A stretch of 64,000 nt of DNA from an uncultured delta proteobacterium (GCA_963840855.1 CAWJBB010000021.1:32001-96000), one strand, 5' to 3'; shown: positions 23,430 through 29,299, counted from the stretch's first letter. Made by a program: numbers and translations. Notes: a model not told the origin generated them from the sequence alone.

Positions 23430-23967
23430 TCAAAGTCTCAGTAGCCGGTCCGCTGGACTTTGAACACCTCGGCCACCGCGATTTAGAACGTGGGTGTAGA
23501 TCATCGTTGTGCTGACATCGCGATGCCCCAGTAACTCCTGAACCGTCCGAATGTCATACCCGTCCTCTAGCAGATGGGTCGCAAAAGAATGCCGCATCGA
23601 ATGGCACGTCGCTTGCCTTGCGATCCCGGCGTTGCGAGCAGCCTCTCGCACGGCTTTTTGTAGCACTGATTCGTGAAGATGATGCCTGAATTGTTGTCCT
23701 GTTACGCGGTCAACGTAGTATCTCAGCGCTGGAAAAACCCATTGCCATCCCCACTCTTGCCCAGCGTTTGGATATTTCCGATCCAGCGCATTGGGCAACA
23801 CAACTCGGCCTAAGTTCTTGTCGATATCGTTCTGGTGCTGCCGTTTACCATCGTCGAGGTGCTTGATGAGCAAGTCTTTGACGTTTCGGAGGCGTTGCCG
23901 GTGCATTGACCGCGGCGCTGCCCTCGATTTGATTTCTGTTCAGTGGGTATATCTTGTCGCTTTCCAT
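23430..23967 (-). pseudogene. intI: Integron integrase with large internal deletion
   Basis: IntI-specific [43 protein letters not shown]; RBS-led start MESDK...TPPK fused out of frame near 23885. Confidence 0.9.
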
Positions 23968-24002
23968 ATTGTTTCCTCCCGTAGTCGCCGTTCAAGGATC
24001 AA

Positions 24003-24781
24003 TCATAAGATTCTTCTTTGAAATCGAAAACCGTCACGATTAGCTGAGAGTTGGCTCGAGTTCCTGAGGCGTGGGAGCGGCATCTCGTCCCATGTCCTCC
24101 CGTCCAGTTCACGGCCGGTACTTTTCTTTCTTGTTCCACCCCACTGCTTGAAGAAGAAAGGCACACCTTGAGCAATGCATCGGTCCCTAATCTGTTGTAC
24201 CCACCGTGGGTCCAATTGCGGCTCCAGGGCCGGATTCTCCTCCAACAATTACCCAATGAATTCCTCTGTAGCGGCAATCGAGGAATCGGTCCCAACAGGG
24301 GCTCGACAGATAGAAACCGAACAGACTGCTGGCACTTTTCGTCAAGTGATCCGATCCGATAGGTATAGTCGACTATTCTCAACGCTCACGCCCATCCAAA
24401 TGTTATCGTGCCAAGGAAGCTTTCCAGCGAGTTCAACGAGTCTCTCCGATCGCTTGGTCAGAATCTGAAACGTGTGCCAATGAGCTTTTCCCATGACATC
24501 AAAAATCGCTGGATAAAATCAAGCGGCACATCGGGATGAAACAGATCACTCATCGAATTGACAAAGATCTTCCGCGGCTGACCCCACCGCAAGGGCTGTT
24601 CAAGTAGATCGTCGTGCAAAGTGACATCGAAATTGTTCCTGTACCTCGCCTGCCCCATGGCATGTAACCGCCGCGCCATGCGATGCGCGTAGCAATTCTT
24701 ACATCCAGGGCTGATCTTCGTGCAGCCAGTTACCGGGTTCCAGGTTGCATCGGTCCATTCAATCGCCGAATCTTGAGCCAT
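24003..24781 (-). CDS. DUF5131 (phage Gp37/Gp68-like, three-Cys motif) protein, frameshifted
   Basis: [54 protein letters not shown]. Confidence 0.9.
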
Positions 24782-24788
24782 ATTTACC

Positions 24789-25666
24789 TCATAAAAATCT
24801 GAAGCCTGTTTGCGGATCTGAATATTTCTTTGTTTCCTTCCAAAATTTTGGACCTAACTTATGCTTGCTGTACAGCGCGAGTCGATATAGCGGCAAATTC
24901 TTCTCGTCAGATCGAATCAGAAGTGCTTCTTTTACACCTGGGTCAATGTAGCCCAGTTTCTGCATCGAGCGTCCAAACTCCTCAACAACGAAATTCTCGA
25001 ATGATTTGCCGGTCGCCTTTTCTTTACTCCCAACGACTACGCCAATCTGCGTTACCAACAAAATGCTCCAGTGTCTTATTTCGAGGCTGTGTGTAGTTTT
25101 GCTCATTGCGATTTGCGTCCATGCTGGATGGAATAAGTACCAGAAAATCCATAAATCTTTGCGACAGCGCTTCTATTGTTGAAAAATGCAAGTTCTGCAT
25201 CTGAAATGGATCGAGAAAACAAAACCCCAGGACCCTTTGGTTCCTTCCGGGTCGTGGCATCTCCGCAATAATATTATCTACCGATGCGTTGGCATTCCCA
25301 GTGATAATCTTTACGTTCCTGTTCGGAAAATCCCGTCGACACCTCGTTTCAAGAGCTTCGGCAAAGTTCTTGTCTCCTTCACAGAAAATATATTTGTCGA
25401 ATGCTTCAGGCATTCCAAGGATCAGAAGAGGCGACGCAGCTGACTATTCGTCTTGTCCCACGAATTCGAGATCGCCCAGAGCCAGCAAACAAATCCAAAT
25501 AAACAAGAGCATCCCACTTGGTACGCATAGATTTTATGAAGAGCGACGCGTACAGTTGGACTTGGCGATATTTCTCTTCACCCCAAGCTCCAATCTCGGG
25601 TGTTGGCAATCCGTCGTCATCCAGCTGTTTTAGCGGTTCAATGTTTGCCATATAGAGAGTTTGCAA
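24789..25666 (-). CDS. tcmP: Three-Cys-motif partner protein (methyltransferase-like), frameshifted
   Basis: [31 protein letters not shown]; adjacent to DUF5131. Confidence 0.85.
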
Positions 25667-25738
25667 CCATGCAACTTATATTGAGGCATCATTCTGGATC
25701 AACAGAAATTTTCACGCATCCGCATGATTACTCCGTAC

Positions 25739-25776
25739 GTTTGGAACGATTGGAACTTCTGGAACGTTTGGAACCG
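25739..25776. repeat. Nonamer tandem repeat, single arm
   Basis: TTTGGAACGATTGGAACTTCTGGAACGTTTGGAACC immediately after the imuB stop. Confidence 0.75.
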
Positions 25777-25779
25777 TGT

Positions 25780-27291
25780 TTATTCAATAGATCCTTGCAA
25801 AAACCATCTTCGTCTTAGCCGATCATAGTACAGCCATAAAATATCGCCGCGGCGGGTTTCGGCGTAGTAATATTCGCGCTGGATTTCTTTGCGCCACCAG
25901 CCGCCGGAGAAAACATAGGGCCCGGTGAGCCGGTCGACGGTGCCGTACTTGGGGCCCAAAATGAGCCAGCCGTCTTCGTGGGTGTGATAGGGTCCGCCGG
26001 GGAGCAAAACCGGTTTGGCGACGATCCGGCGCACCAACATTTGGGTCGTCCTTCGACGTTGCTCAGGACAGGGGGGGAGCTTGACGCGGTCGAGGGGCTC
26101 CCAGGCGAAGCGCGCTTCGGGTAGATGGCCGTCTTTCAGCGTTGCGTGCACGACGGCTTCGTCGCCGAATTCCGCGCGCAATCGCGCCAGCGCGCGGTTG
26201 GCGGCGTCGAGATCGCGCGCAGGCTGCTCGGCAAAAAGATGCAGCTGTTCTCGGGTCGCGGCGCACACCTCCGCTTTTAATTCAATCTCGATGGCGCCGG
26301 CGGAGAATTTCAGCGACTCCAGTCGCAGGCGGACCAGGTCGATTATTTGCGCTTCCTCCAGCGTCGGCGTTGCCGGACGGATCTGCTCCTTAAGCCAGCC
26401 GCTGCGATCGATTAGGAAAGACAGCCAAAGCACTGCGAGTGCCTGGGCGCGCTTGGCGAGCGCCGCCAGCAGCGGATGGAGCATTTGCTTGATGAGAAAG
26501 AGCAGCCGCGTGGCATCGCTTTCCGGATCGTCGAGGATGCGTCTTTGCGCCACCGGTTCTTCGGGTCTGCTTGGATCGAGAGGCGCCCAGAGCTCGCCGG
26601 CGGCCATTTGATGCAGACGATAAGCCTCGGCGCCGAAGCGCTCGCGCAATCCCGCCGGCGGCAAAGAAAGCAAGGCGCCGACGGTTTTGATGCCGAGCTT
26701 GAAAAGCGCGTCGCGAAAGTGCGGATCGATATGCAAGCGAGCCAGCGGGATTTTGTTCGCCGCGCTCCGTTCTTCGGCGGCATCGCGAAAAATCGTGATA
26801 CCCCTTTGGGCCTTGACCACCGCGTAAGTGCCGAAGCGGGTGAGACCGACGGCGACGCTGGCCGCGAGACACTGCATTGCTATCTCCTGGCGAATGGCAT
26901 GGGCCCAATGGCGCGGCGAGGAATAGAGACGCTGCAGCCCCGCGCCGTTGAGCCAGAAAACTCCGGGCTCGCTTGCAGAAGGCTCGACTTCGGGCGAAAA
27001 ACCCATAAGCCGGCGGGTCAGCTCGGCGACCGATTGCGTGATTTCTTTCGGCGCGACTGCGCCGGCGCGCAGCCCTGAAGCCAGAGAAAGCGCCGCGGCG
27101 TAGCGCAGGCCCGGCAGCACGCCCGATTGCCGCGCCTGCTCATTGACCCAGAGAACCACTCCCTGCGGCTTATCCTCGGCGACCACCGCTGCGGGCTGGG
27201 CCGCCCAACCGGGATGCCGTTTGAGCAGTAACTGCAGCGGAAAGGCCGGCAGATCAACACAGGCCAGCCGGCCCAAAGTAGAGCTCTTCAT
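25780..27291 (-). CDS. imuB: ImuB, catalytically inactive Y-family polymerase
   Basis: ACVDLPAFPLQ, FSPEVE, RLRAEFG, GPYVFSGGWW..QREYYYAE. Confidence 0.9.
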   Translation of the reverse strand: MKSSTLGRLACVDLPAFPLQLLLKRHPGWAAQPAAVVAEDKPQGVVLWVNEQARQSGVLPGLRYAAALSLASGLRAGAVAPKEITQSVAELTRRLMGFSPEVEPSASEPGVFWLNGAGLQRLYSSPRHWAHAIRQEIAMQCLAASVAVGLTRFGTYAVVKAQRGITIFRDAAEERSAANKIPLARLHIDPHFRDALFKLGIKTVGALLSLPPAGLRERFGAEAYRLHQMAAGELWAPLDPSRPEEPVAQRRILDDPESDATRLLFLIKQMLHPLLAALAKRAQALAVLWLSFLIDRSGWLKEQIRPATPTLEEAQIIDLVRLRLESLKFSAGAIEIELKAEVCAATREQLHLFAEQPARDLDAANRALARLRAEFGDEAVVHATLKDGHLPEARFAWEPLDRVKLPPCPEQRRRTTQMLVRRIVAKPVLLPGGPYHTHEDGWLILGPKYGTVDRLTGPYVFSGGWWRKEIQREYYYAETRRGDILWLYYDRLRRRWFLQGSIE

Positions 27292-27856
27292 GTTTCCACG
27301 CCGGTCCCCGCCGTTTATCCTTGAGCACCCGAAGCGCGCAGGCAAAGCGATTTTCCAAGGCCCTTTTTTTTTCCGCGTGGGCCCTGAGCGAGACCAGCGA
27401 GCCGAGCGAAAAATCTTTCCGTTCTTTTTCCGTCAAGCAAACCACCGCGGTATGGTGATGATGCGCGAGGCCGGTCAAGCGGCTCTGCAGCGGCATGGGG
27501 ATATCGGCGCCGCCGAGATCGAGCACGATCAAGCCGAAGCCGCCGGAGCGCAAAAGTTTTTCGCCCGCGCGCGCGATGTTTTCCGCGGCGCTGAGCCGGA
27601 TCACCACCAGCGCCGCTAGATCGGTTCCGCCCTGGGCCGCGTCAGGTGGATAGAAAGCACTCTGCGCCCCGGTGACCCAACCCACCGGTTCACCTCGCTC
27701 CTGAGTTTCCCGCACCAGGCCGAAGGCCACGGTCAACGAGGCCGCGGCCGCCGACGCGGAAATTTCCACCAGCCGGCCGGCGACCTCCGCAGAAATTCCA
27801 CAGGGCCTTGGAAGTAATAACTGGGCGAAGTTTTTGCGCAGGAAGAAAGCATCATA
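27254..27856 (-). CDS. imuA: ImuA/RecA-like protein (5' end uncertain)
   Basis: GRLVEIS, FYPPDAAQGGTDL, LLRSGGFGLIVLDLG; directly upstream of imuB. Confidence 0.8.
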   Translation of the reverse strand, partial: YDAFFLRKNFAQLLLPRPCGISAEVAGRLVEISASAAAASLTVAFGLVRETQERGEPVGWVTGAQSAFYPPDAAQGGTDLAALVVIRLSAAENIARAGEKLLRSGGFGLIVLDLGGADIPMPLQSRLTGLAHHHHTAVVCLTEKERKDFSLGSLVSLRAHAEKKRALENRFACALRVLKDKRRGPAWKHEELYFGPAGLC

Positions 27857-27861
27857 CCTGT

Positions 27862-27944
27862 CGTTCAAGTCGTTCAAAACGTTCAACGAAGTTTAACGGT
27901 TCCAAAGGTTCCAAGACCGTTCCAATGGTTCCAACGCGTTTAAG
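27862..27944. repeat. Nonamer repeat arm downstream of four-helix-bundle gene
   Basis: CGTTCAAGTCGTTCAAAACGTTCAAC...GTTCCAAAGGTTCCAAGACCGTTCCAATGGTTCCAAC. Confidence 0.8.
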
Positions 27945-28387
27945 ACTGTCGAGCTGATTGACGCAGCTTCCGAATAATCGATCGGGTTGGACTCGTTGTA
28001 TTTTGGCCCCTGCATTCCGCTTCGTTTGAGATAATTAATTAGGTGCTCGATCATTGCTCGACAGAGCGCTTGAAGAATTTCAGCAAGTCTGTCGGATTCA
28101 TTCTGTTGCGATGATATTCTTGATCAACAGCCACATACAGTTGCGAGCGAACTTCGCCGCAGGATCCTTTCGCGACATAGAGAAATTGGATGAATTCTTG
28201 ATTTCCGCCGCGTTCAAACCCTTCAGCAATGTTTGACATGATAGAAATTGCCGCGCGTTGGATTTGATCCCGCGAAGACTAAAATCCTTTGAAAATTTTG
28301 GCGCTAGAAGTTAACGGTAGATTTCTTGTCGTTAAACGGCGCGCCTCTTTCCAGATTTCCAAATCTTCGAAATGTTTTATCGTGCAT
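27945..28387 (-). CDS. Four-helix-bundle protein (TIGR02436/IVS-like), several frameshifts; 3' end approximate
   Basis: [11 protein letters not shown]...[41 protein letters not shown]. Confidence 0.9.
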
Positions 28388-28461
28388 AGGACCTCCAGAT
28401 GAAACGTCGGTTCAAACGATTAGTGCAACGTTTCGAAGTGACTCCGGTTTCGGATTCCGGG

Positions 28462-28488
28462 TTTAACCTTGAACGTTGAACCTTGAAC
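28462..28488. repeat. Heptamer repeat arm upstream of four-helix-bundle gene
   Basis: TTTAACCTTGAACGTTGAACCTTGAAC. Confidence 0.75.
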
Positions 28489-28492
28489 TGCT

Positions 28493-29101
28493 CTAGAATT
28501 TTCTCAGCAGCCCGACTATTTTACCCACAATGCGAAATTCTCCTTGCGAAAGCATAATTGGAGCGTATTTATCATTCTCCGCTTTGAGCGTGATGACGCC
28601 GCCTTTTTTGTAGAACCGCTTGAGTGTCGCTTCGCCTTCGATCAAGGCGCAGATGATCTCGCCGTTTTCCGCCGTACCTTGCTGCTTGACGATCACCCGG
28701 TCGCCGTCCAGGATACCGGCGCCGGTCATGCTGTCGCCTTTGACCTGGAGCGCGTAAAGCTTCCCCGATCCCATGTCGCTCGGTATGGTCAAAAGCCCTT
28801 CGATATTTTCTTCGCTGAGAAAGGGTTTGCCGGCGGGGATTCGTCCTAAAACCGGCACCTCGCGGGTGGCCGGCAAGACCGCTTTTCCCATAGCGTTGGC
28901 CATCTCAATGGCGCGTTTACCGACCCGGCGGATGTAGCCTTTCTTTTGCAGCGCTTTCAGATGATCGGCGACGCCGTTGGTGGAGGCGATCTTAAACTTG
29001 GCGCCGATCTCGGGAATCGACGGCGCATAGCCCTTCTCTCGGATCACGCGCAGCAAGAAGTCATAGATCTCTTTTTGCCTGGCAGTCAGTGTGGGAAGCA
29101 T
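28493..29101 (-). CDS. lexA: SOS repressor LexA
   Basis: LTARQKEI wHTH, A-G cleavage site (IPAG), catalytic GDSM and ATLKR. Confidence 0.95.
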   Translation of the reverse strand: MLPTLTARQKEIYDFLLRVIREKGYAPSIPEIGAKFKIASTNGVADHLKALQKKGYIRRVGKRAIEMANAMGKAVLPATREVPVLGRIPAGKPFLSEENIEGLLTIPSDMGSGKLYALQVKGDSMTGAGILDGDRVIVKQQGTAENGEIICALIEGEATLKRFYKKGGVITLKAENDKYAPIMLSQGEFRIVGKIVGLLRKF

Positions 29102-29108
29102 AAGAATC

Positions 29109-29137
29109 TATATACTGAAAATAATTTCAGGTGTCAA
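29109..29137 (-). promoter_or_regulatory. lexA sigma70 promoter with putative LexA operator
   Basis: TTGACA-17 bp-TATATA; the spacer contains palindrome CTGAAA-TTAT-TTTCAG; ATG lies 7 nt after the -10. Confidence 0.8.
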
Positions 29138-29157: not shown

Positions 29158-29299
29158 GTTCAAGCCGTTCAAAACGTTCCAAACGTTCAAGTCGTTAAAA
29201 CTAAGGTCGTTTAACGGCTTTAGTTCTCAACTATTTAAAAATCATTGAGTATTGAACGACCGAAACGGCTTGAACGATTTGAACACTGGAACTTTGAAC
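29158..29299. repeat. Inverted nonamer tandem-repeat element
   Basis: GTTCAAGCCGTTCAAAACGTTCCAAACGTTCAAG ... TTGAACGATTTGAACACTGGAACTTTGAAC. Confidence 0.8.

Follow-up and report, generated by a model that had tools for sequence, protein, structure and literature searches.

A decayed PF05635 gene inside inverted tandem arrays between lexA and an imuA-like gene of a Candidatus Binatia bacterium, and its likeness to 23S rRNA intervening sequences

Why should a gene of the four-helix-bundle family PF05635/TIGR02436, the type carried by intervening sequences (IVS) of 23S rRNA, lie between lexA and an imuA-like gene, with oppositely oriented runs of a short tandem repeat on its two sides? The question is raised by a stretch of 64,000 nucleotides from an uncultured delta proteobacterium (GCA_963840855.1, CAWJBB010000021.1:32001-96000), which we call the window and whose own coordinates are used throughout. 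Bacterial heptamer arrays, such as the intergenic STRR repeats of cyanobacteria, have to our knowledge gone unexplained for decades, and the IVS of Leptospira 23S rRNA was reportedly treated by Ralph and McClelland in 1993. In the available text of one paper, PF05635 is still termed functionally uncharacterised (PMC11270868). The locus links this very large family with heptamer arrays outside rRNA, and we found no description of such cassettes outside rRNA in open-access papers and preprints. An initial annotation of the window had proposed a transposase-free insertion unit that may loop out of mRNA. The explanation that we favor, and hold to be probable, is that the locus is a decayed IVS-type cassette, that is, a PF05635 gene inside inverted tandem arrays, situated within an mRNA operon.

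The genes of the operon are encoded on the minus strand, which corresponds to the transcript. The first of them, lexA (28493..29101), encodes the SOS repressor (TIGR00498, 203.2 bits, plus PF01726 and PF00717) and has its stop codon at 28495-28493. The 5' arm (28461..28488) begins 4 nt 3' of this stop and consists of GTTCAAG, GTTCAAC, GTTCAAG and GTTAAAC at a period of 7 nt; the contig of one relative has one extra 7-nt unit. A leader of 73 nt (28388..28460), about 45 nt longer than those of intact orthologues, then runs to an ATG at 28387 and includes a GGAGG ribosome-binding site at 28396-28392. The PF05635/TIGR02436 sequence itself (27993..28387) is followed by the 3' arm (27863..27934), which holds four TTGGAAC, one TTAAAC and three TTGAAC units at a period of 9-11 nt, the last three of which pair with the 5' arm, and which stops 6 nt before the imuA-like ATG at 27856. 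Both arms, first pointed out in the initial annotation, are read directly from the sequence. The pattern GTTCAA-N3-GTTCAA, with at most one mismatch, matches 11 times in the window against an expectation of 0.31, and none of 100 shuffles reached 11 matches. The imuA-like gene (27254..27856) has a RecA fold and is named by context, as its scores to PF00154 (25.5 bits) and to the NCBIfam model NF033429 (24.5 bits) are both below cut-off; orthologues are present in 26 of 41 genomes. It is contiguous with lexA and with an imuB-like gene for a Y-family polymerase homologue (25780..27345; PF00817, 43 bits). The dnaE2 gene does not adjoin this group, and a dnaE2-like gene stands alone on another contig (C46:72476).

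The enclosed sequence is recognizably of the expected family. It scores 90.7 bits against PF05635 (cut-off 33.8) and 83.4 bits against TIGR02436 (cut-off 24), both values obtained with an in-frame TAG read as X, and the PF05635 match ends at profile position 86 of 106. No open frame runs through it: frame 1 supplies the ATG and, further on, the tail, and the intervening body is spread over frames 2 and 3 and interrupted by stops. Alignment to six intact orthologues locates indels of +1, +1, +2 and +2 near 28380, 28328, 28267 and 28105, respectively. The extra letters at 28380, 28328 and 28267 are missing from contigs of about 93% identity from two studies; these sequencing-run contigs are those of relatives, no run having matched more than 23% of sampled words. 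Assembly error is unlikely, since lexA and the imuA-like and imuB-like genes, about 920 codons together, are intact in the same contig. As judged from its reading frames, then, the enclosed PF05635 copy is a pseudogene, disrupted by in-frame stops and by four or more indels that break the frame. The TIGR02436-type gene of the initial annotation thus keeps its family but not its integrity. Decayed cassette copies of this kind are easily mis-called as short ORFs, and in annotation a four-helix-bundle gene should be called together with its surrounding repeats, as a single unit.

The likeness to the IVS of 23S rRNA extends beyond the protein family. In Coxiella burnetii, the available text of PMC4990558 describes a helix-45 IVS whose inverted repeats at the termini make up a 28-bp stem that is cut by RNase III, and which has three or four tandem heptamers, strain-variable in number, before its ORF. 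Common to the two systems are a same-family ORF, a stem made by inverted repeats at the ends, tandem heptamers just 5' of the ORF (variable in the IVS, four here at 28488-28461), and an ORF that is decayed in some IVS-bearing strains, as far as that source goes (PMC4990558). They differ in that the present locus lies in an mRNA operon (lexA/imuA-like) and the window has no Rfam rRNA match, and in that the arms here are long arrays of a unit dispersed throughout the genome. More generally, neither the window nor any of five related loci had a match that reached the gathering score of an Rfam family.

The arms are predicted to pair. When the whole lexA-imuA spacer is folded to minimum energy, the 5' arm pairs with the last three 3' units to make a closing stem, and the arm-versus-arm duplex has an energy of -68.2 kcal/mol (z -3.4), equaled by 1 of 100 mononucleotide shuffles. 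The arm duplexes of 12 operon cassettes gave z values of -1.3 to -6.4, and in 10 of the 12 at most 1 of 100 shuffles was as good. The fold of the whole 651-nt spacer was no better than shuffles (z -0.37). The stem carries bulges because the 5' arm has a period of 7 nt and the distal 3' arm one of 9 nt, and in the lexA-imuA transcript the arms would form an interrupted stem of about 20-26 bp. Such a stem may be cut by RNase III like the 23S IVS stem, or may otherwise uncouple the two halves of the operon; by analogy, processing of the RNase III type is a tentative proposal that we would put at somewhat short of an even chance. The stem ends 6 nt from the imuA start codon, and so could gate imuA translation. 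The looping out of mRNA suggested in the initial annotation is compatible with the modeled stem. A metatranscriptome contig (X16, record 14) covers, in a relative, the end of lexA together with the beginning of the gene, and is a hint at most.

Is the arm-bracketed design peculiar to this locus? The 7.1-Mb assembly (93 contigs, 94% complete, 8% contaminated) has six PF05635 loci, and the other five are each bracketed by approximately 7-nt tandem arrays of a unit of their own, of the types GAGGCGT, GATCAGA/GTCGGA, CACGA-rich and GTGTCAG; the initial annotation's notion that the paralogues would have flanking arrays is borne out for all of them. Members of the family are present in 29 of 41 genomes, at most 13 per genome. 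This tally counts G009 and G015, both flagged as unpublished, the loci of which are excluded from the later counts. In 63 full-length copies, the upstream flank was scored against the reverse complement of the downstream flank. Cognate inverted arms exceeded the 95th percentile of non-cognate pairs in 50 of these copies and the 99th percentile in 22; 13 copies in relatives had no significant inverted arms, including one that is cut by a contig end and was scored as a miss. Direct, same-sense similarity of the flanks exceeded the 99th percentile in 6 of the 63. The hairpin is not universal, because some copies have same-sense arms instead (L034, L053, L054, L056, L067, L094 and L102). Five copies (L034, L067, L071, L094 and L102) have long same-sense repeats on both sides, with direct scores of 43-106, and these look like tandem cassettes or duplicated upstream regions rather than hairpins.

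Relatives of the operon lineage occur at unrelated sites in Acidobacteriota, Zixibacteria, Ignavibacteria, Planctomycetota, Nitrospirota and other phyla, and they too have GTTCAA-like arms, for example GTTCAAAG, GTTTAAAC, GTCCAAAG and ATTCAAGA. In these phyla 30 of 50 copies exceeded the 95th percentile, against a null that is inflated by shared GTTCAA-like units. The fit of arms between loci rises with protein identity (rho 0.37, reached by none of 300 permutations); pairs scoring at least 30 make up a share of 0.05 at 50-60% protein identity and of 0.85 above 80%, and there is no fit below 50%. These data show that the arm-bracketed design is the rule for the PF05635 family in the clade and for the lineage's relatives in other phyla. 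Within the genome, two of the paralogous loci (C19:25217-25531 and C58:104745-104984) are the same locus twice, consisting of a substrate-binding protein gene, the cassette and a glutathione S-transferase-like gene, the neighbors being labeled by eye from the sequence; with a contamination of 8%, the duplicate probably represents two strains. The two copies differ in the number of GAGGCGT units, and the C58 copy has lost about 100 nt between two downstream arrays and has a truncated gene.

The imuA-like protein was searched in 40 relatives, and 15 loci of the same bacterial family have both lexA and imuA. The gene is found at the lexA-imuA junction in 7 of the 15, namely in the window, in all three congeners and in three other genera. 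At the other junctions there is an empty GTTCAA hairpin (L013, L017 and L024; 3 of 15), half a hairpin (L021), arrays of other units (L020 and L026), or nothing comparable (L014 and L019). In five genomes a cassette lies directly after imuB (L036, L047, L063, L064 and L068), and one genome, G002, has both sites occupied. The 12 operon copies, seven after lexA and five after imuB, all fall into one clade (SH-aLRT 92) of a 64-copy tree, in which the two sites are intermixed; support inside the clade is weak, from an alignment of 105 columns. A scan of one genome per species, seeded with 11 operon copies, identified the clade as Candidatus Binatia, placed in the Deltaproteobacteria in older records. 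Among loci of at least 70% identity, 22 of 25 adjoin lexA (8) or imuB (14); among the more distant loci, in other phyla, 1 of 54 is near an SOS gene, a lexA-like gene 2 kb away. Because the seed was the operon lineage, the scan bears solely on where this one lineage resides, as distinct from a general association of the family with SOS genes. Among intact copies the median dN/dS is 0.079, from the 9 of 55 pairs with unsaturated dS, and by this codon comparison the intact operon lineage is under strong purifying selection.

The cassette is therefore an old, exchangeable resident of the operon and not a recent insertion, and we regard it as very probable that it is an IVS-type cassette, dead at this locus, with a long-term residence in the operon. 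The insertion unit of the initial annotation fares poorly here, as what we find is largely conservation in the operon across the clade, by one Binatia lineage with a dN/dS of about 0.08. That one lineage keeps to the SOS mutagenesis operon, under purifying selection, is a new observation and is unexpected for a purely selfish element. The cassette stays with lexA where the operon is split, given that three loci with lexA and a cassette (L106, L108 and L109) have no imuA or imuB within the following 5 kb. On one Binatia contig (L109 and L135), lexA with its cassette is separated by about 20 kb from imuA-imuB, which has a separate copy. In several relatives (L013, L016, L017 and L021) a conserved palindrome, GCACTC-N3-5-GAGTGC, followed by GGCGGAAGCC, is situated just upstream of imuA; it has no Rfam match and is missing from the window and the congeners.

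Residence in the operon does not mean that any one copy is fixed there. Compared with the nearest genome, G001, lexA is 96% identical (dS 0.15) and imuA 91% (dS 0.20), versus a dS of 1.66 for the best-preserved 51 codons of the pseudogene, a contrast that rests on those 51 codons and in which an AT-rich composition could partly raise dS. Between G001 and G002 the dS excess is only 2.3-fold. In a sliding comparison with G001, positions as far as the lexA stop are 93-100% identical; the value drops to 28-90% between 28501 and about 27790 and is 90-100% thereafter. The divergent block is thus about 700 nt long, about 60% identical and sharply bounded, and contains the cassette together with the first 20 or so codons of the imuA-like gene. 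The copy in the window is of the allele type of G004 and G011, and G001 and G002 have the other type. The 91 pairs in which lexA was compared with the gene, two of them matching a genome with itself under different locus identifiers, include close hosts with divergent alleles (L104 and L119, lexA 84.8% versus gene 66.7%) as well as the reverse pattern (L016 and L015, lexA 64.1% versus gene 77.1%).

The structure of the intact copies offers a route to loss. Their gene is succeeded by a second array oriented like the 5' arm, which a short loop separates from a reverse array, and the empty hairpin of L024 corresponds to this inner array-loop-array after the gene in L009, L015 and L016. Recombination or slippage between the 5' arm and the same-sense array after the gene would delete the gene and leave an empty arm-loop-arm hairpin. 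Replacement, in turn, may occur by homologous exchange, with the end of lexA as one limit and the 5' end of imuA or the distal arm as the other. We consider it likely that the cassette turns over as a block, a process that would be visible as a divergent allele between near-identical flanks, as an emptied hairpin in some relatives and as a pseudogene here. The block replacement could be ordinary homologous recombination from strain to strain, independent of the arms. What is new is the sharply bounded replacement of an allele and, at one fixed site, a natural and tractable series of intact, replaced, emptied and decayed states.

The main alternative to a decayed IVS-type cassette is the insertion unit, in an active form: a recently inserted, transposase-free element whose loaded form seeds the empty GTTCAA hairpins. 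The arms are indeed common to loaded and empty forms. Genome-wide there are 629 arrays of at least three GTTC(C)AA units, among which are 101 tight hairpins and 127 forward-then-reverse pairs with loops of at most 150 nt. Empty hairpins elsewhere in the window had been noted before and are confirmed; an example with 33-nt arms (76% complementary) and a 61-nt loop lies upstream of the lexA promoter (29158..29284). The lexA-imuA locus is the single pair in the genome with a loop of 300-1000 nt. Its description in the initial annotation as the loaded form of the empty hairpins is therefore apt as to structure, but it is the sole loaded one among about 230 hairpins, and its gene is dead, both of which speak against an active unit. 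Mobility is favored by the paralogues at unrelated sites, each with its own arms, and by the low GC of the cassette (about 44-45% in the cassette and pseudogene versus 55-63% in the flanking genes; the gene is below its locus in GC in 53 of 63 copies of relatives). It is favored also by a paralogue at C40:72297-72703 (L005/L006), which is split by half a GTTCAA element of three reverse units (C40:72471-72512) and has lost profile positions 40-47, implying that GTTCAA arrays moved or recombined into the gene.

Comparison among genomes is similarly divided. All five other-phylum genomes with a GTTCAA-armed copy have further GTTCAA arrays (7 to 113 matches each), but the cassette's own arms account for nearly all of these in two of the five. 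Only one genome has GTCCAA arrays, and it is the one in which the arms of the copy are built of GTCCAA. Within the same bacterial family, 23 of 24 genomes have triple GTTCAA arrays, reaching 370 per strand; in a second family 2 of 5 genomes have a single such array, and the 11 genomes of a third family have none; a reversed control pattern had essentially no matches. Across relatives we saw no clear relation between the abundance of GTTCAA arrays and the presence of an operon copy. Against seeding by the loaded form, the 96% complete genome G020 is rich in GTTCAA (197 pattern matches), and neither an imuA match nor an operon-type copy was found in it. The lineage, moreover, is limited to two gaps of one operon across Binatia, under purifying selection. 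An active, recently inserted unit is, on balance, unlikely.

A second alternative to a decayed IVS-type cassette takes the gene for a functioning part of the SOS regulon, encoding a ring protein that binds DNA or RNA and recognizes its own repeat, with the arrays as binding or regulatory sites. Long residence in the operon at a dN/dS of about 0.08 would be expected of such a gene, and the ribosome-binding site directly after the 5' arm in intact copies is in keeping with it. The solved relatives closest in sequence, 2GSC (E 1e-14) and 2RLD, were each deposited with five chains, and the homologue Avd is an accessory factor of an error-prone polymerase, according to the available text of PMC10053308. 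The rise of arm fit with protein identity (rho 0.37) also points this way; it is no proof of recognition, however, because common descent of the whole cassette alone predicts that arms and protein co-diverge. The gene has been lost repeatedly, being absent from 8 of the 15 same-family junctions and decayed here; either of two sites may be occupied, so that its position is not fixed; and relatives in other phyla lie outside SOS operons (1 of 54). We consider this alternative quite improbable. Equally doubtful is the broader idea that each PF05635 protein is the sequence-specific partner of its own bracketing repeat, and that the Binatia protein is an SOS-induced ring acting on hundreds of GTTCAA hairpins, which it would propagate, protect or resolve; this is one joint claim, to which we assign a low probability. 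If it were true, many bacteria would owe their dispersed heptamer and nonamer arrays to a repeat system that is guided by a protein, needs no transposase and has the IVS-type cassette as its loaded form.

That the gene merely happens to lie between two arrays of a REP-like repeat that fills any intergenic gap has in its favor the roughly 629 arrays in the genome, the arrays in 23 of 24 genomes of the bacterial family and the geneless array pair upstream of lexA, but it is most improbable, since the paralogues are bracketed by different units of their own, relatives in other phyla at unrelated sites also have GTTCAA-like arms, and at one array per approximately 11 kb two arrays abutting one 450-nt gene are unlikely by chance.

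The dispersed hairpins nevertheless share features with several known systems. Like REP/BIME sequences and REPtrons, they are short intergenic hairpin repeats present in hundreds of copies, often directly after stop codons; REP elements are single imperfect palindromes, in contrast to the tandem 7-9-nt arrays of the arms here. REP is mobilized by a Y1 transposase, and Y1 transposases were considered as mobilizers in this genome, but none of the 10 Y1_Tnp matches lies within 800 nt of a GTTCAA array, the nearest being at 891 nt. No transposase is associated with the locus, and the term transposase-free used in the initial annotation stands. As in MITEs, copies with inverted repeats but no gene far outnumber the loaded form; the arms here are, however, tandem arrays, and no transposase-bearing parent is known. 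The array pairs in forward-to-reverse order that span 1.7-2.1 kb (on C2, C3, C31, C40 and C41) were considered as other cargoes and rejected, as they enclose unrelated ordinary genes at background frequency; one encloses an IS110-like transposase, a label given by eye from the translation.

The TAACTGA repeats of Beggiatoaceae are tandem 7-nt intergenic units with many copies per genome and of unknown function, and the available text of the paper makes no mention of S23, four-helix or intervening sequences (PMC4679880). Both STRR and TAACTGA repeats are described as direct arrays without a linked protein gene, in contrast to the inverted pairs that bracket a gene family here. PF05635 resembles Avd, the accessory protein of diversity-generating retroelements (DGR), in the available text of PMC10053308, the two sharing a homologous four-helix-bundle fold; unlike in a DGR, no reverse transcriptase was found in Pfam scans of the 16 neighboring ORFs at 17.8-32.3 kb. 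Periods of 7 (597 arrays) and 9 (737 arrays) dominate the 3153 tandem arrays of the genome. Other families of tandem units include AAAGGCGC at period 8 (39 arrays) and, at period 7, AAACTAG (20), AAAATCC (17) and ACGCCTC (15), most of them without a PF05635 gene of their own in the genome.

The ends of the operon have features of their own. Directly 3' of the imuB stop there is a solo GTTCCAA arm (25741..25774), at a position equivalent to that of a same-lineage cassette in five relatives. It opens a region (23430-25774) in which a decayed mobile element stands where dnaE2 would be, with DUF5131 as two ORFs (24458-24781 and 23999-24382) and a fragment of an integrase of 158 amino acids (23430-23906); an ORF in this element, without a Pfam match, presumably resembles a three-Cys-motif partner protein. 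At the other end, a lexA promoter can be picked out by eye, with a -35 element TTGACA (29137-29132) and a -10 element TATATA (29114-29109), and a CTG-N10-CAG palindrome (29115-29130), a candidate SOS box, occupies its 17-nt spacer. The -10 element is only 7 nt from the lexA start codon, which suggests a nearly leaderless lexA mRNA.
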